The notes: generated by a model from the sequence alone, not told the origin. Counted from the stretch's first letter, positions 842 to 54,046 are shown. The stretch is DNA of 64,000 nt from Alphaproteobacteria bacterium (GCA_031549365.1 JAVBPX010000001.1:130417-194416); one strand, 5' to 3'. A program made the numbers and translations.

Positions 842-2161
842 ATGTCCAAGCCATCAACATTTTTTCTGCAAACTTTTGGATGCCAAATGAATGTGTATGA
901 TGGCAAACGCATATCATCAATGTTGATCCAACACGGATTAAAACATGTTGAAAATGCAGCGGATGCGGATGTCATCATTTTAAATACTTGTTCTGTCCGG
1001 GAAAAGGCATCGGAAAAAATATTTTCAGCACTCGGCCGATTGGAAAAAATAAAATCAAAACGACAGAAATTAACAAAAAGGCCGGTAATTATGGGTATTG
1101 TCGGCTGCGTCGCACGCGAATCCGGCGCGAATGCCTTTCGCCGCCAACGGGCACTAAATTTTGTTTTGGGCCCCCAGAGCTATCATAAATTACCCGAAAT
1201 ATTATTGGATCCCGAAACACCATATTTGGATATTGATTTATCAGGGTTGGAAAAATTTAATGCCCTGCCCGCCGTTCACGAAAGCACGGCTGTTGGTTAT
1301 GTCCCGATCCAAGAAGGTTGCGACCACGTATGCACGTATTGCATTGTTCCATACACTCGCGGCCGCGAATTATCACGCGATATGATGGATATAATGGCCG
1401 AGATTGAACACCTGGCCCACCTGGGCGCAATGGAAATTTGTTTTTTGGGACAAAATGTAAATGGGTATCGCGGGCCAAACGGAAAAACATTGGCCGATTT
1501 AATTCGTGAAACTGCAAAAATACCAGCAATTAAACGAATTTGGTATACATCATCATATCCAACCGAAATGACGGATGAATTGATTGCAATGCACGGGACT
1601 GAACCAAAATTGTTACCAATTGTCCATTTGCCGCTTCAATCTGGGTCGCCCGCCGTTTTAAAACGAATGAACCGTCCGTACGATTTAAATCAATACATAT
1701 CAATTATTGAAAAATTACGCGCTGCACGATCCGATTTACAAATTTCATCCGATTTTATTGTTGGATTTCCTGGGGAAACGGACGACGATTTTAATGAAAC
1801 TGTAAATATCGTTAATAAAATTGGATACATAAATTCGTTCAGTTTTAAATATTCCAAACGTCCGCATACTGCTGCGGCATTAATGATGGATCAAATTCCT
1901 GAAAATATAAAATCGGTTCGTCTAAAAACATTGGACGGGATTTTAAACGAACAACAACGCGCTTTTAATCAATCATTAATTGGAAAAACTTTTTCATGTT
2001 TAATTGATCAAAACGGCAAACTTCCGAACCAAGTTATTGCCCGCACACCATACATGCAGCCCGTGATTTTGGATAATGCGAAACATTTAATGGGCAAATT
2101 GGTTAACGTTAAAATCACATCCGGAAACAAGAGTGCGTTAAGGGGGGATATCATAGAATGA
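842..2161 (+). CDS. miaB: tRNA-i6A37 methylthiotransferase MiaB (radical SAM)
   Basis: 439 aa. N-terminal MTTase domain 'FLQTFGCQMNVYD'. Radical SAM CxxxCxxC motif 'CDHVCTYCIVPY'. C-terminal TRAM-like region. Stop overlaps the next start (ATGA at 2158-2161). Confidence 0.9.
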   Translation: MSKPSTFFLQTFGCQMNVYDGKRISSMLIQHGLKHVENAADADVIILNTCSVREKASEKIFSALGRLEKIKSKRQKLTKRPVIMGIVGCVARESGANAFRRQRALNFVLGPQSYHKLPEILLDPETPYLDIDLSGLEKFNALPAVHESTAVGYVPIQEGCDHVCTYCIVPYTRGRELSRDMMDIMAEIEHLAHLGAMEICFLGQNVNGYRGPNGKTLADLIRETAKIPAIKRIWYTSSYPTEMTDELIAMHGTEPKLLPIVHLPLQSGSPAVLKRMNRPYDLNQYISIIEKLRAARSDLQISSDFIVGFPGETDDDFNETVNIVNKIGYINSFSFKYSKRPHTAAALMMDQIPENIKSVRLKTLDGILNEQQRAFNQSLIGKTFSCLIDQNGKLPNQVIARTPYMQPVILDNAKHLMGKLVNVKITSGNKSALRGDIIE

Positions 2162-4164
2162 CAACAACACACATAACAATAAATGACACTCGCTGGAAAA
2201 ACGCCAAACTTGATTTTGGCACAATTGTTAATCAAACGTTAAAGTATATGGGGCATAAAAAACCCGGGGCCGAGGTTTCAATCCTACTTACCAATGATTC
2301 CGAAATCCAAAAATTAAATTCTGAATATCGCGGCAAAAACAAACCAACAAACGTATTATCATTTGAAACTGGTGATGATATGATGCTGGGCGATATTGTA
2401 TTATCATATGATACAGTTGAACGCGAATCTATATCTGAACACAAATCTTTTAAAAATCATGCGACTCATCTAATTATCCACGGGGTATTACATTTATTGG
2501 GTTACGATCATATTGATGAAAATCAAGCCAATGAAATGGAGGGGTTGGAACAAAAAATCCTTAATACCATGAAAATTGCTGACCCGTATTCTGATAAACA
2601 CCGCAAATTGCCAAAATGGTTGCGCGGTTCATTATTATCATTTGGATTAATGTTGCTGGGTGCATTTACATCCCTTGGGTTTGCTCCAACAAATTTTATT
2701 TGGGCGTCGATTATCGGAATGATTGTTTATTACATTGTAATTTTTCCAAAACACGGATTTATAAATGGAATGAAAACCGGCTTTTGGTTTGGCGCAGGAT
2801 ACGCATTAACCATGTTATCATGGATGACATCATCATTTTTTGTTGACGCAACGGCGGCTGCAACATTTGGTCCATTATTACCACTGGCGTTAATGGGGAT
2901 TGGAATTGGTGGCGGAATTATATTTGGATTGCCTGCGGCACTGACAGCTATGACGCGCGAAACATCCTGGCGACATGCCGTGTTTTTTGCAACATTTTCA
3001 ACATTAATATTATGGGCCCGCGGTTGGATTCTTACTGGATTTCCCTGGAACCCGTTCGGCTTGGTTTTAATGCCATATGCAGCGATCGCAAATTCAATGT
3101 CTTTGATTGGATCATTGGGGCTTTCATTTTTGTTGATCGGTTTGTGTTCAGCAATTGGATTTATAATCGCCAAACGCATATATAAAATACCAGCCCGCAC
3201 AATGGATCAATTAATGGTATCTGTGTTTGCAATATTATTGTTTGCTTGTTCTTGCTATGGGGCATACCGCTTGAATATGGAATTACCAAAACCAATTGCA
3301 AATGTCCGTTTGGTCCAGGCCGCAATCCCACAACAATTCAAATGGGACCCAGAAATGGCAACTGATCACGTAAATAAACACATCATGCTGTCGAATTTAC
3401 CATCAAAAAATCATTTGGATGCCATAATTTGGCCGGAAAGCGCATATCCATTCGTACAATCAAAACCGGTCTTTTTGCCCGCTACCCAAACAAAAATGCG
3501 TGATAATATTTTAATCAGTGGCGCAATATTAAAATCAGATTCAAATTACTATAACGGATTAATTGTTGCGAACACATCTGGCAATATTATCCAAACATAT
3601 CAAAAACATCACTTGGTCCCATTTGGAGAATATAATCCATTTGAAATTATTGGGATGGGCGCATTGGTTCCAATGCCCGGGTCTTTTGGTTCAGGGAATG
3701 GTGTTAAGACGATTGAAACACCAACCTTTTCATTTGCCCCAGCAATCTGCTATGAAATAATTTTTTCAGGCGGAGTTATTGGCGATATAAAACCAAAAAT
3801 GATTTTAAACATCACAAATGATGGTTGGTTTGGAACAACGTCTGGGCCATACCAACATTTAAACTTGGCCATTGCACATGCAATTGAAACTGGAACTTCG
3901 GTTACACGTGTATCATATTCGGGAATATCCGCTGTAATTGATCCTGTTGGATATTTGGTAAACGGAGAACGTACAACCATCACCGACAGCGTAATTTCAA
4001 ACGATGTATCAAACAATATCCCACTACAACAAATGGGCGTGTTGGATGTTTATGTGCCGGGACCAATGTATGCACCGTATTTATGGGTCGGCCCACATAA
4101 AATGATGATATTGATTTTGTTATTGGTATTAATTACGACAAAAATTCGATTTAATCGGAAATAA
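2158..4164 (+). CDS. lnt: In-frame fusion ORF of endoribonuclease YbeY (N-terminal ~140 aa) and apolipoprotein N-acyltransferase Lnt (C-terminal ~520 aa)
   Basis: The N-terminal part has the YbeY zinc motif 'HGVLHLLGYDH'. From 'LRGSLLSFGLMLLGAFTSLGFAP' onward the sequence is Lnt-like: multi-TM N-terminus, then a nitrilase-fold domain with 'WPESAYPF' and 'ICYEIIF'. There is no stop codon between the two parts. Confidence 0.75.
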   Translation: MTTTHITINDTRWKNAKLDFGTIVNQTLKYMGHKKPGAEVSILLTNDSEIQKLNSEYRGKNKPTNVLSFETGDDMMLGDIVLSYDTVERESISEHKSFKNHATHLIIHGVLHLLGYDHIDENQANEMEGLEQKILNTMKIADPYSDKHRKLPKWLRGSLLSFGLMLLGAFTSLGFAPTNFIWASIIGMIVYYIVIFPKHGFINGMKTGFWFGAGYALTMLSWMTSSFFVDATAAATFGPLLPLALMGIGIGGGIIFGLPAALTAMTRETSWRHAVFFATFSTLILWARGWILTGFPWNPFGLVLMPYAAIANSMSLIGSLGLSFLLIGLCSAIGFIIAKRIYKIPARTMDQLMVSVFAILLFACSCYGAYRLNMELPKPIANVRLVQAAIPQQFKWDPEMATDHVNKHIMLSNLPSKNHLDAIIWPESAYPFVQSKPVFLPATQTKMRDNILISGAILKSDSNYYNGLIVANTSGNIIQTYQKHHLVPFGEYNPFEIIGMGALVPMPGSFGSGNGVKTIETPTFSFAPAICYEIIFSGGVIGDIKPKMILNITNDGWFGTTSGPYQHLNLAIAHAIETGTSVTRVSYSGISAVIDPVGYLVNGERTTITDSVISNDVSNNIPLQQMGVLDVYVPGPMYAPYLWVGPHKMMILILLLVLITTKIRFNRK

Positions 4165-5180: not shown

Positions 5181-6263
5181 ATGATAATAACATTAACATT
5201 GACCAATTTTCGAAATCACCCAACAACCCGCATTCGGGTTGATGGCGCGCGGCACATTGTATTAACCGGCGAAAATGGATCGGGTAAAACAAACGTGATC
5301 GAGGCTTTATCCTTGCTCGCCCCTGGCACAGGACTTCGTCGTGCAAATTTATCGGAAATTTCTACCTTTAATTCATCATCCGGATTCGGAGTCGTTGCAG
5401 AATTGTCAAATGGGACATTGGTTGCAACGGCATTATCAAATGATTCTGAAAAGCGTGTTGCTACAATTGATAAACAAACATCCGCAATATCCCATTTTCC
5501 AAATGTGATACGTTTGGTTTGGATAACCCCGCGCGAGGATCGACTGTTTAACGATTCAGTATCCGATCGTCGTTCATTTTTTGATCAATTAATAACAACA
5601 TTTGATCCTGCACATTCTGGCCGAATTTCCAGATTATCCAAATTACTAAACGAACGTGCATACGCATTAAAATGTGGGGGCGATTCAATTTGGCTGGACG
5701 GAATTGAAAAACATTTATCTGAAACATCCGCATCAATTGCAGCCGCACGCGTGATGTATGCATCCGAAATTAATCATTTTTTTGGTGACGCATCATCCCC
5801 ATTTGGCCAAAACGCATTGACTGTTTCCGGTTGGTTCGAGGATCGAATTATTAAAAATAAAACGTCAATTGAAATCGAATCTGAATATATTGAATACCTG
5901 CGAAATAACCGGTTTTTAACCAATGATAAACAAATAATTGATGGGCCGAATAAATCGGATATTGTGACTTGGAATATAACATTGGACCGCCCTGCACACC
6001 TGTGTTCCACCGGCCAGCAAAAGATGATTTTATTATCTTTGATTTTATCCCATGCAAAATTGGTCATGACAAAAACTGGATCTGCGCCCGTTATATTATT
6101 GGACGAAGTCGTCGCACATTTGGATCCAAACACGCGCGCATCTTTGTTTAACGCATTGAACCAATTGAATGGGCAAACCTGGATGACGGGCGTTGATCCC
6201 AATTTATTTTCGGGACTGGACGGTGCATTAATTTTAAACGTTAATAATGGTAAAATTTCTTAA
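5181..6263 (+). CDS. recF: DNA replication and repair protein RecF
   Basis: Walker A 'LTGENGSGKTNVIEA'. SMC-like signature region 'LCSTGQQKMILLSL'. Walker B 'ILLDEV'. The start is set at the ATG at 5181 ('MIITLTLTNF'), not the upstream in-frame extension in the ORF track. Confidence 0.85.
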   Translation: MIITLTLTNFRNHPTTRIRVDGARHIVLTGENGSGKTNVIEALSLLAPGTGLRRANLSEISTFNSSSGFGVVAELSNGTLVATALSNDSEKRVATIDKQTSAISHFPNVIRLVWITPREDRLFNDSVSDRRSFFDQLITTFDPAHSGRISRLSKLLNERAYALKCGGDSIWLDGIEKHLSETSASIAAARVMYASEINHFFGDASSPFGQNALTVSGWFEDRIIKNKTSIEIESEYIEYLRNNRFLTNDKQIIDGPNKSDIVTWNITLDRPAHLCSTGQQKMILLSLILSHAKLVMTKTGSAPVILLDEVVAHLDPNTRASLFNALNQLNGQTWMTGVDPNLFSGLDGALILNVNNGKIS

Positions 6264-6598
6264 TCACAAACTTTTTGCTTGGCCAAAAACGGTTCAATTT
6301 CATCTGTGATATACCGAACTATGTAATCATAAATCTCGGGGTTTCCACCGGTTGATAATGCCAATTTTTCAAATCCAGAACGCACATTTTCGGTTTCGAC
6401 CAAAAAATCAATTGGATGACAATCACGCTCTTGGAACTTTTCATATTTATGAATCAGATCTGCAAAAAATTTATTATGTTGCATTGCGCGTTCCAACGTT
6501 ACTTTTTCGGGAACACCATCGGCATATAAATTCGGAAAAACATATAAAACACCGGCAAATAAAACAAAAATCAGAATAAATTTAATGAAATCTTTCAT
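6260..6598 (-). CDS. Small secreted or membrane-anchored hypothetical protein
   Basis: 112 aa. Hydrophobic N-terminal signal/anchor 'FIKFILIFVLFAGVLYVF'. Lies directly downstream on the same strand as the large secreted protein gene. Confidence 0.45.
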   Translation of the reverse strand: MKDFIKFILIFVLFAGVLYVFPNLYADGVPEKVTLERAMQHNKFFADLIHKYEKFQERDCHPIDFLVETENVRSGFEKLALSTGGNPEIYDYIVRYITDEIEPFLAKQKVCD

Positions 6599-6670
6599 GA
6601 TGTACCCCTTTGATGGTTACATCATTTTAACATATATTAAAACTTAATTCAACCCATGGTTGCATAAATA

Positions 6671-8686
6671 TTATTGACCAAACTGCTTATTTTGCTGACT
6701 GGATTGGGTGGTCTTTTTGTTCAATTCATCTTGGATCGATGATAATTTCATAGACATATTTGCAATACATGTATTGGCCTGGTTTGCATCTTTTATTTCA
6801 CTCTCTGAACATCCACTGACGGCACCAACACCAGTTACCCTGTTTGTTGAATAACTGTTAATTGATGACGCTAATTTTGCCAATTGTTTACGCGCCTTGT
6901 CCGACACAGTTTTACCAGAAATCAAACTCTTTGATTGCGACAATTGGTTGTTGAAACAATACATTCTGTCTGTATCAGTTGATTTGATTAAACAATCTTC
7001 GGATGAAACCGATCCCGATGCACCGGATGCGGACGCCGTTAAATCTTCGCCGGATTCAACCCTGGCAATTGCTTTTTGTAACTGCATTTGGAAACGCATG
7101 GTGGTTGATTCCAAATAATTATATTGGCGCTGCATTTCACGTGTTAATAATGTAACCTTGGACGCGATCAAACGATTTAATTCGGCCTTGGACGCTTCGT
7201 CCGTCACAAACTTCGTATCCAAATCTGCGGAATTATAAACTGCGGTTGAACATAATGCATAATACGGATTAACAGAACCTTTGATCCAACCTTTGGTTGG
7301 ATCGAGATCAGATTCCAAAATCCATTGAATTCCCGCTGTTGATATCTTTGCCAAATCCTTGTCCAATTCGATCTGTGTTGATTGACATTTATTCTTCGCC
7401 TTTTCTATGTCTGTTTCATTTCCAGCCTTGGCTGTGACGGTTCCATCAACTGCTAAAACTTTGCGTAATTTTGAAATCGACACACCCTGATCATTATCCA
7501 TAATACCTTCGAAAAAGCCGGAATTCATTGCCGTATCCGATACACATTTAACAACCGTTTTACCAGTTTTATCGATGCTGGACATAAATTTATCTTCTAC
7601 TTCTTGGTTATCTGTGAACAAACGCAACAACTGATCGGGCTTACCATCTTCTGTTTGATACAATCCCCAAACTGAACATGAATTGGTCAACATACGATAA
7701 ATATCATTAACATCAACACCCAATGCCTGGGCTGAAATCAATGCTTTGTAAACTTCGCGGCGCGCATTATCATACGGATCAAAAAATGCTTCGGCCTTTT
7801 GCTTGAAGGCAGCCACGCGTTTTGGCCCGGTACAATTGTCCCCGGTTGCGTTACAACCTGCGTATGTAAATGCATCCTGCATTGCTTTACGCACAGTTGC
7901 CAATGATGCATTAATATTATCCAATTTTGTTAACAATTCGCCGGACGGCGTTGCACGCGCCAATAAATCAGATTGCGATACGCTGGTTTGTTGTTGGGCG
8001 GCTTGAGCCGCCAATACTTCTTGGACCTGTGATGCGGCTTGTTGTTGAGCCATCTGAACTTGCTGATTCATTTGTTCCATTTGTTGCTGCATCATGGCCA
8101 TTTGCTGATTTGTTTGGGCGGATATTGCTGCGGCTTCGGCCTGTTGTGCTTTGCCTGCGGAATCGGCAGCCAATGCGGCGGCAACCGCACTTGAAATTGT
8201 TGGAAATTGTTTACAGCCAAACGCTATACGACCGGATAACGATGACATGCAACCATCGGCAATGCCTGTTGCAACCCCGGAATCCCCACAACCACCGGAT
8301 TTACATTTTGGGGACGCACAACGCAAAACCATTCCATAACAATTATTATAATTTACGCCGTCCGCTTCCAAACAGCCCCGAACCATATCGGTGCAACGTT
8401 GGGACCCAGCCTTGATAATACCGTTTGCAAATGAATTCATATCCAATGTTGCTGCACATTGATCAAAATATTGATCGCATTGGGATGATGCCGTACGTCC
8501 ACCGGATGTTCCCGATGTCCACATTGCATTGTTTGCCCCGCCAAAATTGCTGGACGCTGATGTTAAATTTCCACCGCCACCAAAAATCGCAGGCGCTGGT
8601 CCCGTTACCGGGTTCGCAGCATACAACAAAACCGGGCATAATAACATCCCACAAAAAACTGCCAATAAACCGGTTTTTTTAACCAT
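6671..8686 (-). CDS. Large secreted Cys-rich, Gly/Ser/Gln-rich hypothetical protein
   Basis: 671 aa. Signal peptide 'MVKKTGLLAVFCGMLLCPVLLYAANPV'. Gly/Ser-rich tract near the N-terminus. More than 25 Cys. Gln/Ala-rich coiled-coil-like tract 'MAMMQQQMEQMNQQVQMAQQQAASQVQEVLAAQAAQQQ'. I recognise no known catalytic motif. Confidence 0.6.
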   Translation of the reverse strand: MVKKTGLLAVFCGMLLCPVLLYAANPVTGPAPAIFGGGGNLTSASSNFGGANNAMWTSGTSGGRTASSQCDQYFDQCAATLDMNSFANGIIKAGSQRCTDMVRGCLEADGVNYNNCYGMVLRCASPKCKSGGCGDSGVATGIADGCMSSLSGRIAFGCKQFPTISSAVAAALAADSAGKAQQAEAAAISAQTNQQMAMMQQQMEQMNQQVQMAQQQAASQVQEVLAAQAAQQQTSVSQSDLLARATPSGELLTKLDNINASLATVRKAMQDAFTYAGCNATGDNCTGPKRVAAFKQKAEAFFDPYDNARREVYKALISAQALGVDVNDIYRMLTNSCSVWGLYQTEDGKPDQLLRLFTDNQEVEDKFMSSIDKTGKTVVKCVSDTAMNSGFFEGIMDNDQGVSISKLRKVLAVDGTVTAKAGNETDIEKAKNKCQSTQIELDKDLAKISTAGIQWILESDLDPTKGWIKGSVNPYYALCSTAVYNSADLDTKFVTDEASKAELNRLIASKVTLLTREMQRQYNYLESTTMRFQMQLQKAIARVESGEDLTASASGASGSVSSEDCLIKSTDTDRMYCFNNQLSQSKSLISGKTVSDKARKQLAKLASSINSYSTNRVTGVGAVSGCSESEIKDANQANTCIANMSMKLSSIQDELNKKTTQSSQQNKQFGQ

Positions 8687-8970: not shown

Positions 8971-9050
8971 AAAAAAATAAAACCCAGGGAAATATTAAAT
9001 TTTCTCTGGGTTTTATTCGTATAACAACAATAAAATTATTATAAAATATT

Positions 9051-50914: not shown

Positions 50915-53200
50915 GTGCAGGAACGTCAACCGTTTTTCCCACCCGAGCTTGCTCTATTTCTCCGCCAACTGATTACCAGGATTGGCGGACTTTTTTTCAT
51001 GCTGATGGGAATTTTCTTTTTTGTTGCGTTAATCGGATATGACTCGACGATTGCATCATTGGATGTTGCATCAACATGGACACACCGTGCGATTATGGGA
51101 CAGTTTTGGAATTCCACTGTTGAATTATGTTTGCAGAGTTTTGGCGTACTATCATCCGTTTTTTTTGGATTTGTTTTAATTCGCATGGGATATATGCTGT
51201 TACGTTTACGCGAATGGGCTATGCCAGAATTCACTTTGATGTTAACATTGTTAACTATATTTTTTGGCGCAACCACTGTCGGATTAATTTCTCCAGATGG
51301 ATTTGGCGGCGGATTAATTGGACATATTGTTGCAGCAGATATTGGTCAAATACTGCCATCTATTTTTTTAATCGTTTTGGGATTAGTGTCGTTTGGATTG
51401 TTTTGCTATACCGGATTTTACGCATTACATTTACGCCGCGATCATATTGTAAAAACAATTGGATTAATTGCATCATCATATCGTTGGATTGTAAATTCAT
51501 TTAAACCAATCGATTCTAATTTTAATCCGATGAACATTGATGAAAACGAAATCATCGAACAAGACCAAGAAACCTCCGAAAACGTCGATAAAAAGCCATC
51601 ATTGTTATCCCGACTGGTTGATAAAAAAGCCAAAGAGCCCGTTAAAAAAACCGAACCGAAAAAAGAACCAATAACAATTAAACCGAAACCTGGTAAAAAT
51701 TTCCAATTTCCACCTTTGTCATTATTGGTGCGCGGGGAAAATGCCAAGCAAAACATAACCGCCCAACATAAACAGAGCGCCGAAATGTTGGAAACATTTC
51801 TGGAAGAATTCGGCGTCCGAGGATCTGTCAAAAGAATCAAACCCGGGCCTGTTGTTACATTATACGAATTCGAACCCGCGCCTGGGACAAAAACATCAAA
51901 AATCGTTGCTTCCGCCGAAGATATTGCCCGTTCAATGGCGTCGTCCAGCATTCGTATGGCTGTTATCCCCGGCACAAACGTTATCGGTGTTGAATTGCCA
52001 AATTTAAATCGCCAGACCGTATATTTTCAACGATTAATTGCGAACCCAATATTTCAACAGTCAAAAATGGCAATGCCTATTGCATTGGGGGATGATATTG
52101 GTGGGGAATCTGTTTATGTTGATTTGGCAAAAATGCCGCATTTAATGATTGCGGGACGTACGGGTTCCGGGAAATCAGTGTTTATGCGTTCTATTATTTT
52201 GTCGCTATTGTATAAATTCACGCCCGATGAATGTAAATTAATTATGATTGATCCAAAAATGCTGGAATTCGCAGACTGGAACGACATTCCGCATTTATTA
52301 ACTCCTGTTGTAACCGATCCGCAAAAGGCCGTAAATACATTGAAATGGGCCGTGCGCGAAATGGAGGATCGCTATCGTAAAATGTCTAAGCTCGGGGTCA
52401 AAGATTTGGCTGGATACAATGAAAAAACCGCTGAATTGCGTCAAGAAGGCAAAGTTGTTACAACACGCGTTCAAACTGGAATTGATCCGGAAACCGGGGA
52501 TATTTTATTCGAAGATCGCCCGATTGATTTATCGCCAATGCCTTATTTGGTTGTGATCATCGATGAAATGGCTGATTTAATGCTGGTTGCCGGCAAAGAA
52601 GTCGAAGCTTCCGTTCAACGTTTGGCCCAAATGGCGCGTGCCGCCGGAATCCATGTTGTTATTGCAACACAACGTCCATCCGTCAACGTTATTACCGGTG
52701 TTATCAAGGCCAATTTCCCAACACGTATCAGTTTCCAAACCACATCTGCAATCGACAGCCGCACGATTTTGGACCGCCAAGGGGCCGAATTATTATTGGA
52801 TCATGGAGATATGTTATATATGGCCGCGGGTCGAAATCCAATCCGCGTTCACGCCGCGTTCATCAGCGAAAAGGAAGGCCAAGCCGTTGCAACATTTTTA
52901 CGGGATCAAGAAAAACCCGAATACCGTATGAATATTGGTGATGATGATAATGAAATGGAGCCATCGCTGGTTGATAAAACGTTGCGCTCTGGATCATCAG
53001 AATCACGCGATGATGATTTATACCGCCAAGCAATCGAATGTGTTGTCAAGAGCAATAAGCCCAGTATCAGTTACGTTCAACGCTGTTTACGTATCGGCTA
53101 TAATCGTGCAGCCACATTGATTGAAAGAATGGAAGCCGAGGGAATTATTTCCCCGCCCGATGCGACCCAAAAACGGCATGTCCTACGCAAGGATGGTTAA
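50915..53200 (+). CDS. ftsK: DNA translocase FtsK
   Basis: N-terminal 4-TM domain, Pro/Lys-rich linker, AAA+ motor with Walker A 'IAGRTGSGKS', and C-terminal gamma (winged-helix) domain. GTG at 50915 is preferred over the TTG at 50900, given the GGGGGA RBS. Confidence 0.9.
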   Translation: MQERQPFFPPELALFLRQLITRIGGLFFMLMGIFFFVALIGYDSTIASLDVASTWTHRAIMGQFWNSTVELCLQSFGVLSSVFFGFVLIRMGYMLLRLREWAMPEFTLMLTLLTIFFGATTVGLISPDGFGGGLIGHIVAADIGQILPSIFLIVLGLVSFGLFCYTGFYALHLRRDHIVKTIGLIASSYRWIVNSFKPIDSNFNPMNIDENEIIEQDQETSENVDKKPSLLSRLVDKKAKEPVKKTEPKKEPITIKPKPGKNFQFPPLSLLVRGENAKQNITAQHKQSAEMLETFLEEFGVRGSVKRIKPGPVVTLYEFEPAPGTKTSKIVASAEDIARSMASSSIRMAVIPGTNVIGVELPNLNRQTVYFQRLIANPIFQQSKMAMPIALGDDIGGESVYVDLAKMPHLMIAGRTGSGKSVFMRSIILSLLYKFTPDECKLIMIDPKMLEFADWNDIPHLLTPVVTDPQKAVNTLKWAVREMEDRYRKMSKLGVKDLAGYNEKTAELRQEGKVVTTRVQTGIDPETGDILFEDRPIDLSPMPYLVVIIDEMADLMLVAGKEVEASVQRLAQMARAAGIHVVIATQRPSVNVITGVIKANFPTRISFQTTSAIDSRTILDRQGAELLLDHGDMLYMAAGRNPIRVHAAFISEKEGQAVATFLRDQEKPEYRMNIGDDDNEMEPSLVDKTLRSGSSESRDDDLYRQAIECVVKSNKPSISYVQRCLRIGYNRAATLIERMEAEGIISPPDATQKRHVLRKDG

Positions 53201-53618
53201 TTCGGTGATTGGCACGAAACCAATCGGCTGAATCCCACACAATATAATCCGACATTGTTTTAAAAAATCCAATGTTTTTCAAATGCTTGACTTTTGACCA
53301 ATCAATTTCAATTTTTGTATTCGGTTCGCCAAAACGCATATTGTCATACGCACATTTCATTGAAATACCTCGCCCGGCATCAACCAATTTTAAATCAACT
53401 TTTTCGCAATTTTTATTTTTTAAACGATTTTCGTAATTTGTACATTTTTTGGTTTTTAAGTCCAAACTATCACATGCTAGTGTTGTCATGAACAGCAAAC
53501 CTGTGCTGGCGTCACGAATTTTGCACAGGCAACAAATGCCGCATGCATTGCAAATACTCTCCCATTCAATATCAGATAAATTTTCCATATTTAAATTTTT
53601 TATATTAATGTTTTCCAT
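53145..53618 (-). CDS. YcgN/UPF0260-family Cys-rich protein, paralog 2 of a tandem pair
   Basis: 'DIEWESICNACGICCLCKI' and 'LACDSLDLKTKKCTNYENR' match YcgN 'EWESLCDGCGQCCLHKL...VACRQLNIKTCQCRNYERR'. The 3' end overlaps convergent ftsK by 56 bp. Confidence 0.65.
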   Translation of the reverse strand: MENINIKNLNMENLSDIEWESICNACGICCLCKIRDASTGLLFMTTLACDSLDLKTKKCTNYENRLKNKNCEKVDLKLVDAGRGISMKCAYDNMRFGEPNTKIEIDWSKVKHLKNIGFFKTMSDYIVWDSADWFRANHRINHPCVGHAVFGSHRAGK

Positions 53619-54046
53619 TATATCCCTCGAAAATAATCAACACGATCAATTACAAAATCCACCAACGTTTTCCCATGCGGGATATCCCGCTCATGAATCA
53701 CCCGTCCCCAATCAATTTTTGGAGATGCGCTAGATTTCCCCAACCGACGTTCAGAATAAGGACATGAACGCGGAACCAACGAACAATTATCAATCGTTTC
53801 ACAACATAAATTACCACATCCTGCCTTTTGTTTGCGGCGCTCATTTTTATATGCAATACATTTTTTGGTTTTTAAATCCAAATAATTGCATGCAACCGTT
53901 GTTAAATAAACAGAATGCTCGATCGTTTTATCAAACGGATCCGATAACAAGGTTTTGTTTAAACAACATGTACCGCAACCAACGCAAATGGTTTCCCATT
54001 CGGGGCTCCCCTTTTTTGGCATTGGATTGTGTTCAAAATTTTGCAT
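53618..54046 (-). CDS. YcgN/UPF0260-family Cys-rich protein, paralog 1 of a tandem pair
   Basis: 'SPEWETICVGCGTCCLNKT' and 'VACNYLDLKTKKCIAYKNERR'. Same family as the downstream paralog. Confidence 0.65.
   Translation of the reverse strand: MQNFEHNPMPKKGSPEWETICVGCGTCCLNKTLLSDPFDKTIEHSVYLTTVACNYLDLKTKKCIAYKNERRKQKAGCGNLCCETIDNCSLVPRSCPYSERRLGKSSASPKIDWGRVIHERDIPHGKTLVDFVIDRVDYFRGI

Follow-up and report, generated by a model that had tools for sequence, protein, structure and literature searches.

A conserved two-module family of cysteine-rich exported proteins in small-genome gut Alphaproteobacteria, possibly linked to type IV secretion

Gene A lies on the minus strand of a 64,000-nucleotide stretch of alphaproteobacterial DNA (GCA_031549365.1 JAVBPX010000001.1:130417-194416; hereafter the window) and encodes a 671-residue protein that a first-pass annotation had described as having no recognizable family. 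Our results support a model, whose chances we judge to be about even, in which A is the fused form of a Sec-exported, cysteine-stabilized, coiled-coil envelope complex that consists of two modules and is possibly linked to type IV secretion systems (T4SSs). In this model, the N- and C-modules would be exported to the periplasm or the cell surface and would bind each other, a long helix rich in glutamine and alanine (the Q/A tract) would form coiled-coil oligomers, and the conserved cysteines, which are even in number (20 in mature A), would staple the helical domains, probably as disulfides. The complex would be a structural part of the envelope and neither an enzyme nor a variable adhesin. 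At its most specific, our guess is that it would serve as an accessory or surface component of a scattered T4SS, or of the outer-membrane apparatus that the T4SS spans.

Family range and two-module architecture

The earlier statement about A holds for Pfam, NCBIfam, PHROGs and the PDB and fails in general, since there are hundreds of uncharacterized homologues. A word-indexed search of 5.8 billion proteins returned 86 homologues of 490–800 residues, all labeled 'hypothetical' and drawn from metagenome-assembled genomes (MAGs) labeled Alphaproteobacteria, Rickettsiales or Proteobacteria, and a profile search of 1.84 billion representatives returned 325 clusters at E ≤ 1e-3 and 147 at E ≤ 1e-30. 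Relatives of A were present in 271 genomes in a scan that used one genome per GTDB species; many of these are Candidatus Enterousia, others are gut MAGs labeled Alphaproteobacteria or Rickettsiales, and they come from the guts of humans, ruminants, horses and termites. As far as these searches indicate, the family occurs only in gut Alphaproteobacteria with small genomes, namely Candidatus Enterousia / order Rs-D84 and allied MAGs. Enterousia falls within order Rs-D84. Members of this order have genomes smaller than 1 Mb that encode many hypothetical membrane proteins; most of biosynthesis and respiration is missing, and a dependence on partner cells is predicted (PMC12306168). No published description of the family was found in the literature on Enterousia or on Rs-D84 secretion.

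Housekeeping proteins encoded in the window are 34–78% identical to their counterparts in Candidatus Enterousia and Rs-D84 MAGs, and the window genome is a divergent relative of these organisms. The view that it is a reduced, host- or gut-associated genome is upheld by this identity and by a YbeY–Lnt fusion common with Enterousia / Rs-D84. The fusion is a single 668-residue open reading frame (ORF) at 2158–4164 (plus strand) that joins the rRNA maturation endoribonuclease YbeY to the apolipoprotein N-acyltransferase Lnt (Pfam YbeY, LNT_N and CN_hydrolase); it recurs in the Candidatus Enterousia genome of L079 with 34% identity and looks like a clade marker. A separate observation concerns database labels: seven family-bearing contigs with a VirB or LpxD context (L006, L009, L016, L021, L041, L071 and L073) were deposited as 'uncultured Muribaculaceae bacterium' or 'Bacteroides fragilis' bins, which looks like MAG mislabeling or contamination.

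The two ORFs called in the first pass at 6260–8686, A and its downstream neighbor B, were recovered as co-directional minus-strand ORFs with exactly those coordinates. A lies between thrS and recF. An intrinsic terminator follows thrS, so A is expected to start its own transcription unit, with the start within the 364-nt region upstream of A. The features of A and this terminator are listed below; pLDDT is the predicted local distance difference test score of the structure models.

6671..8686, minus strand: gene A, 671 residues, fused N-module plus C-module member of an uncharacterized exported cysteine-rich family (ORF call)
8615..8686, minus strand: signal peptide, residues 1–24, consisting of MVKKTG, a hydrophobic core and LYA, with A as the next residue (read from the sequence)
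8483..8614, minus strand: Gly/Asn/Ser-rich N-terminal tract, residues 25–68, predicted to be disordered (pLDDT <50), carrying G-x-N-L-T ... N-N-x-x-W
8363..8482, minus strand: private insertion of A, residues ~69–108, with extra cysteines C70, C77, C98 and C105 (alignment)
8198..8359, minus strand: conserved six-cysteine helical domain, residues 110–163, C-x6-C-x4-C-x4-C-x12-C-x11-C, pLDDT 86–94
7973..8197, minus strand: long Gln/Ala/Met-rich helix, residues 164–238, probable coiled-coil oligomerization stalk (a low-confidence single long helix in the models)
7277..7972, minus strand: conserved central domain of the N-module, residues 239–470, with the motifs YAGC..G.NC.GPKRV..FK.KA..FFDPY and GVD..DIY.ML..SC..WG
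6674..7276, minus strand: C-module, residues 471–671, with an ALCS...YN motif, a long helix and C479, C565, C577, C626 and C640, a predicted four-helix bundle
8971..9018, minus strand: intrinsic terminator after thrS, -19.1 kcal/mol, z score -5.66, followed by a U-run

The N-terminus of A, MVKKTGLLAVFCGMLLCPVLLYA followed by ANP, is a signal-peptide-like segment of the Sec type without a lipobox, and comparable signal peptides start all homologues in the alignment. This segment is the sole membrane segment of A, which has neither a lipobox nor a beta-barrel. The signal peptide, the Gly/Ser tract (rich in Gly, Asn and Ser, residues ~25–68) and the Q/A-rich stretch described in the first pass are all present, whereas the cysteines number 22 rather than more than 25; two of these lie within the signal peptide.

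In the family alignments, the elements follow one order: signal peptide, disordered motif tract, six-cysteine helical domain, Q/A/M-rich helix, central domain, a variable cysteine-bearing region and the C-terminal module. Within the motif tract, N40 and T42 are invariant in an alignment of 29 sequences, and an alignment of 79 shows conservation of 90% or more at G38, N40, L41, T42, W56 and N57; A has all of these residues. Each cysteine of the six-cysteine domain (C116, C123, C128, C133, C146 and C158) is invariant or at least 90% conserved, and A carries LRCASPKC, which matches the family core R-C-A-x-P-K-C. Invariant residues of the central domain are R244, G249, Y275, C278, C285, R290, F294, F301, G323, C337, W340, C381 and C434.

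The family exists in two forms, as shown by ORF clustering of a set of 84 homologous loci extending up to 10 kb per side; as L005 and L016 represent one contig, 83 of these loci are distinct. In approximately 50 of the 83, the family is split into two adjacent genes, an N-module gene of 540–740 residues and, downstream, a C-module gene of 230–290 residues with its own signal peptide; in the remaining loci, the window included, the modules are fused. The spacing between the split genes is -1 to 12 nt in nine tabulated loci, often with a 1-nt overlap. Window residues ~471–671 align to 41 stand-alone C-modules, with positions C10, N16, K41, Y53, Q66, C96, C108 and C157 of this segment invariant, and the C-module signature (ALCS..YN, a K-x-Q-L-x-K helix and four further cysteines) is present in A. 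BLAST of the C-module of A to the ORFs downstream of the N-modules in L003 and L004 gave E values of 2e-9 and 3e-10. These alignments indicate that the conserved partner of the N-module is the C-module, which in A is fused into the same chain. The fusion and fission pattern and the overlapping reading frames together suggest that the two modules work together and bind each other.

A is the most divergent member of the family, with 50–54% identity in conserved blocks compared with 63–73% among the other members sampled. Its private insertion is a 48-residue segment with four cysteines, compared with at most 16 residues in all 78 aligned relatives. Conversely, A lacks a segment that all relatives have: after the central motifs, the family median is 63 residues with four cysteines, whereas A has 18 residues and no cysteine. 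A nearly invariant cysteine at position 345 (family motif GVD..DIYMML..SCN.WG.Y.C) is a threonine in A. Elsewhere in the family, the C-terminal halves of the N-modules are variable and differ greatly among species in the alignment.

An AlphaFold2 model of A built from 79 sequences is almost entirely helical (pLDDT 68), with confident blocks in the six-cysteine domain, the central domain (residues 250–320, pLDDT 90–96) and the C-module (residues 500–665); a separate model of the N-module agrees with the full-length model. Foldseek of the A model against the PDB found no match (best E 0.6), and the fold matches found are generic helical bundles or hairpins only, which argues against an enzyme fold. 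Scans of A and B with Pfam, NCBIfam and PHROGs gave nothing above cut-off, the best Pfam and NCBIfam matches of A all falling under their cut-offs (E ≥ 0.011), and sequence searches of the PDB gave no meaningful match for A as a single sequence or for the C-module as a profile. A match to a housekeeping periplasmic enzyme family, which the first-pass annotation had named as the observation that would speak against its view, was looked for by sequence and by fold and not found. Matches to TFIIA, the sole recurrent Pfam match among relatives, and to phage tail fibers were rejected because they fall in the Q/A tract and reflect its poly-Q composition. By these comparisons the family fits no known family or fold; it appears to be new only in that limited sense, as a conserved family of hypothetical proteins whose helical architecture is generic.

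Gene B, the Q/A tract and the idea of a variable surface factor

The first-pass annotation had proposed that A and B form an operon of a large secreted protein and a small secreted partner. The relevant features are as follows.

6260..6598, minus strand: gene B, 112 residues, an exported or anchored orphan with two cysteines (ORF call)
6599..6670, minus strand: A–B spacer, 72 nt, with a weak hairpin at 6650–6662 and a promoter-like match at 6624–6652

B has several properties of a gene. Its N-terminus is hydrophobic, a ribosome-binding site (AAGGGG) lies 8 nt upstream, and its codon usage scores 0.193 per codon in frame, compared with 0.15–0.30 for 18 window genes, with negative values in the other five frames. 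The spacer hairpin (-4.4 kcal/mol, z score -0.44) is on par with shuffled sequence and unconvincing as a terminator, and co-transcription of A and B is plausible. On the other hand, a word-indexed search of the same 5.8 billion proteins matched B only to itself, tblastn and phmmer found no relative of B in the 84 homologous loci, and B is absent beside all 83 other distinct family loci. B thus looks like a real gene-like ORF that is nonetheless an orphan unrelated to the family of A. We read it as a lineage-private small exported protein outside the conserved unit that may be co-transcribed with A, so that the proposed operon stands as to direction and plausible co-transcription, and the proposed partnership does not. 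At its downstream end, B (minus strand, ending at 6260) converges with recF (plus strand, ending at 6263); their stop-codon ends overlap by 4 nt and leave no space for a terminator of either gene.

The Q/A tract had been credited with a repetitive DNA basis at 8000–8150 that could make its length variable. Tandem Repeats Finder found no array there, the nearest being a 10-nt repeat of 1.9 copies at 8193–8211, and the only direct repeats in this interval are two-copy, imperfect and 10–15 nt long. The tract is instead a family-wide feature of 85–147 residues (median 127) with a median Q+A content of 50%; in A, the stretch from C158 to R244 is the shortest in the family at 85 residues and is 53% Q+A. 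Its codons are mixed and DNA repeats are lacking beneath it, so length variation driven by slippage is unlikely.

These observations bear directly on the earlier view that A is a lineage-specific, fast-evolving surface or host-interaction factor with a slippage-variable Q/A tract and B as its dedicated partner, a view that we consider improbable. It would account for an exported protein of no curated family in a reduced gut-associated genome (PMC12306168), for a Q/A tract of different lengths in different species, and for the strong divergence of the variable C-terminal halves of the N-modules. However, the DNA under the tract holds no tandem or long direct repeat, B has neither a homologue nor a counterpart at any other locus, and the family, far from being lineage-specific, occurs in at least 271 species with invariant motifs. 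Such conservation would be expected more of a core component of the envelope than of a host-interaction factor that evolves fast.

Genomic context and the possible link to type IV secretion

Genes for T4SS components lie within 10 kb of the family gene in 9 of the 83 distinct loci, in two different sub-operon arrangements. In the first, the family gene comes after VirB8-VirB9-VirB10 on the same strand. It is separated from VirB10 by 7 nt in L021 and L073 and by 69 nt in L071; in L005, where Pfam identifies the VirB proteins, one outer-membrane protein (OMP) gene lies between. In the second, seen in three Enterousia genomes (L013, L025 and L027), VirB3-VirB4 are followed by a 206-residue exported protein (p96), the N-module and the C-module, all tightly packed; Pfam identifies VirB3 and VirB4 in L025 and L027. 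By rough reckoning rather than a computed statistic, two independent junctions with different T4SS sub-clusters exceed chance in genomes of ~900 genes. The protein between VirB4 and the N-module gene belongs to a cluster of its own (cluster 96, 206–214 residues, exported, no Pfam match; locus coordinates ~7.5–9.7 kb). It occupies the usual virB5 position and could be the VirB5 analogue of these systems.

The guess that the family serves type IV secretion arises because genes of relatives stand in operon-like order behind VirB8-VirB9-VirB10, VirB3-VirB4 or LpxD-FabZ. We hold the specific role, an accessory or surface part of a scattered VirB-type system, to be plausible but well short of likely. 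A still more particular version is that the N- and C-modules form an unrecognized disulfide-stapled coiled-coil accessory structure (a stalk, tip or adhesin) of a scattered VirB-type system, with which Rs-D84-like bacteria would contact and draw on other cells and which would replace VirB5-type parts not recognized in the vir clusters examined; this we regard as unlikely.

Several points weigh against the two-module, possibly T4SS-linked model. The other 74 of the 83 loci have no T4SS gene within 10 kb, other contexts are ribosomal protein operons or housekeeping genes, and the T4SS link could be a coincidence of gene order in two lineages. The 64-kb window was searched for vir genes and for neighbor families 1 and 7, and none was found. 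Nor does the family show sequence or fold similarity to a known T4SS component, whether VirB/VirD4 or accessory. Localization, disulfides, oligomerization and binding between the modules are all things that we infer. The function of A itself may have drifted, given that it is the most divergent member, with a private insertion and a private deletion. Finally, respiratory chains are reportedly absent from Rs-D84 bacteria (PMC12306168), which puts the route to periplasmic disulfides in doubt, and the cysteines might bind metal instead of forming disulfides.

In another set of loci, LpxD-FabZ lie directly upstream of the family gene, with Skp, OmpA-like, type IV pilin-like and beta-barrel OMP genes nearby. 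This junction suggests that the common denominator of the family's surroundings may simply be the cell envelope. The family would then be a general scaffold of the outer membrane or periplasm unrelated to secretion, such as a disulfide-crosslinked protein that stiffens the envelope or tethers the outer membrane, with a role like that of the chlamydial cysteine-rich envelope proteins, and its adjacency to T4SS genes would be incidental; we give this reading a real but minor share of the probability. It draws on the LpxD-FabZ placement near Skp, OmpA-like and beta-barrel OMP genes in several lineages, on the unrelated cysteine-rich exported families that adjoin in many genomes, and on a wide distribution across the clade with one N-module gene only per locus among the loci seen. 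Against it stand the two independent, closely spaced operon junctions downstream of core T4SS genes, and the family shows no homology to a known envelope structural protein; A itself has no membrane anchor, lipobox, peptidoglycan-binding domain or OmpA-like domain.

Proximity to T4SS genes could also mean that A is a secreted substrate or toxin-like cargo rather than a structural part of a machine. Pertussis toxin, for example, assembles in the periplasm before the Ptl system exports it, and the family resembles such cargo in having signal peptides, many cysteines and two exported subunits encoded directly beside T4SS genes in some genomes. However, the family is strongly conserved across the clade with a single N-module gene per locus, neither sequence nor fold reveals a toxin or enzyme domain, and most loci lack T4SS genes nearby. 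We find this explanation quite improbable.

The least probable of the alternatives, and one to which we give very little credence, is that the conserved cysteines are zinc or Fe-S sites and A is a periplasmic redox or metal-handling protein. The regular spacing C-x6-C-x4-C-x4-C would suit such sites. The respiratory chain is the usual route of DsbB re-oxidation, and its reported lack in Rs-D84 (PMC12306168) would also favor metal binding over disulfides. Against this, no metal-binding or redox family was matched, the cysteines lie in helices of a confidently modeled helical domain as disulfide staples would, and Sec export of an unfolded chain disfavors Fe-S cofactors.

Beyond these arrangements, family genes were found between rpsK and rpoA, next to the L21/L27 genes, beside other large cysteine-rich exported proteins and among housekeeping genes. 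At ten loci (L004, L059-L061, L074, L075 and L081-L084), the N- and C-module genes sit inside the ribosomal-protein/RNA-polymerase operon between rpsK (S11) and rpoA, an unusual site for non-housekeeping genes; in this lineage, a gene for a 106-residue cysteine-containing exported protein is inserted upstream of the modules. Homologues of A in Rs-D84-type genomes are also accompanied by further large exported cysteine-rich families (L002-L003, L011, L014, L018, L040, L042, L061 and others), which include cluster 1 (~440 residues), cluster 6 (~1040), cluster 9 (~850–1000), cluster 13 (~750) and cluster 41 (~770). C-x3-Y-x2-C-x4-C-like motifs recur in these five, none of which has a Pfam domain, and kinship between them and the family of A was rejected (hhalign probability ≤3%). 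Two other neighbors are pilin-like: cluster 19 (L006, L008 and L010) is a 150-residue protein with a prepilin N-methylation motif (Pfam N_methyl, slightly under the curated cut-off), and cluster 2 (L002-L003, L014, L019 and others) comprises tandem proteins of 400–450 residues whose N-terminus is hydrophobic and pilin-like and which match no Pfam family. In the window itself, two adjacent minus-strand ORFs at 53145–54046 encode proteins of 157 and 142 residues with 6–8% cysteine, CxxCxxCC-type motifs and no signal peptide; they are probably paralogous cytoplasmic metal-binding proteins.

Comparison with known systems and implications

The C-module invites comparison with the VirB5/TraC/CagL-type minor pilus proteins of T4SSs (PF07996). 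Like these, it is Sec-exported and ~230–290 residues long, is predicted to be an all-helical bundle and, in some genomes, lies downstream of VirB3-VirB4 in roughly the canonical virB5 place. However, it has five conserved cysteines, invariably accompanies a large N-module, either fused to it or as its pair, and has no sequence-profile match in the PDB. The window C-module does not match PF07996 at E ≤ 1, and among the 66 families matched by 42 C-modules, it is not one of the 25 matched most often.

The 22 cysteines of A had also raised the idea of TraN. F-type TraN (PF06986) is a cysteine-rich outer-membrane protein of mating-pair stabilization, and A resembles it in length (~600 residues), signal peptide, ~20 conserved cysteines and association with type IV secretion. 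Unlike TraN, A is modeled as almost all alpha-helical with a coiled coil, and the T4SS genes near its relatives are P-type (VirB3/4/8/9/10), not F-type. A has no Pfam match to PF06986 at E ≤ 1, and over 29 aligned members this family is outside the 25 most-matched; in addition, a comparison of A with 72,556 plasmid records gave no match. The idea was rejected given the lack of a profile match, the all-helical fold and the lack of plasmid matches.

Two further comparisons are more distant. The alpha-hairpin or coiled-coil domains of the periplasmic adaptors HlyD, AcrA and MacA are periplasmic and oligomerize through helices, as we suppose for A, but a generic hairpin is all that they have in common: A is cysteine-rich, has no lipoyl or beta-barrel domains, no Pfam HlyD match and no adjoining transporter genes. 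The chlamydial proteins OmcA and OmcB offer a functional analogy, as exported cysteine-rich proteins of an obligately partner-dependent bacterium with a reduced genome, and several unrelated cysteine-rich exported families likewise co-occur in Rs-D84-type genomes. There is no sequence similarity, however, and A is modeled as helical, not beta-rich; crosslinking by A is putative.

For annotation, our results imply that the family merits a profile with two separate modules and that B should not be annotated as a partner of A. The family may prove to be an ordinary envelope scaffold. Nevertheless, Rs-D84/Enterousia bacteria, which are widespread in human, ruminant, horse and termite guts, are thought to live off other cells (PMC12306168), and its clade-wide conservation, together with its recurrent operon-like placement beside genes for type IV secretion and for outer-membrane biogenesis, makes this family a concrete candidate for part of that interface.

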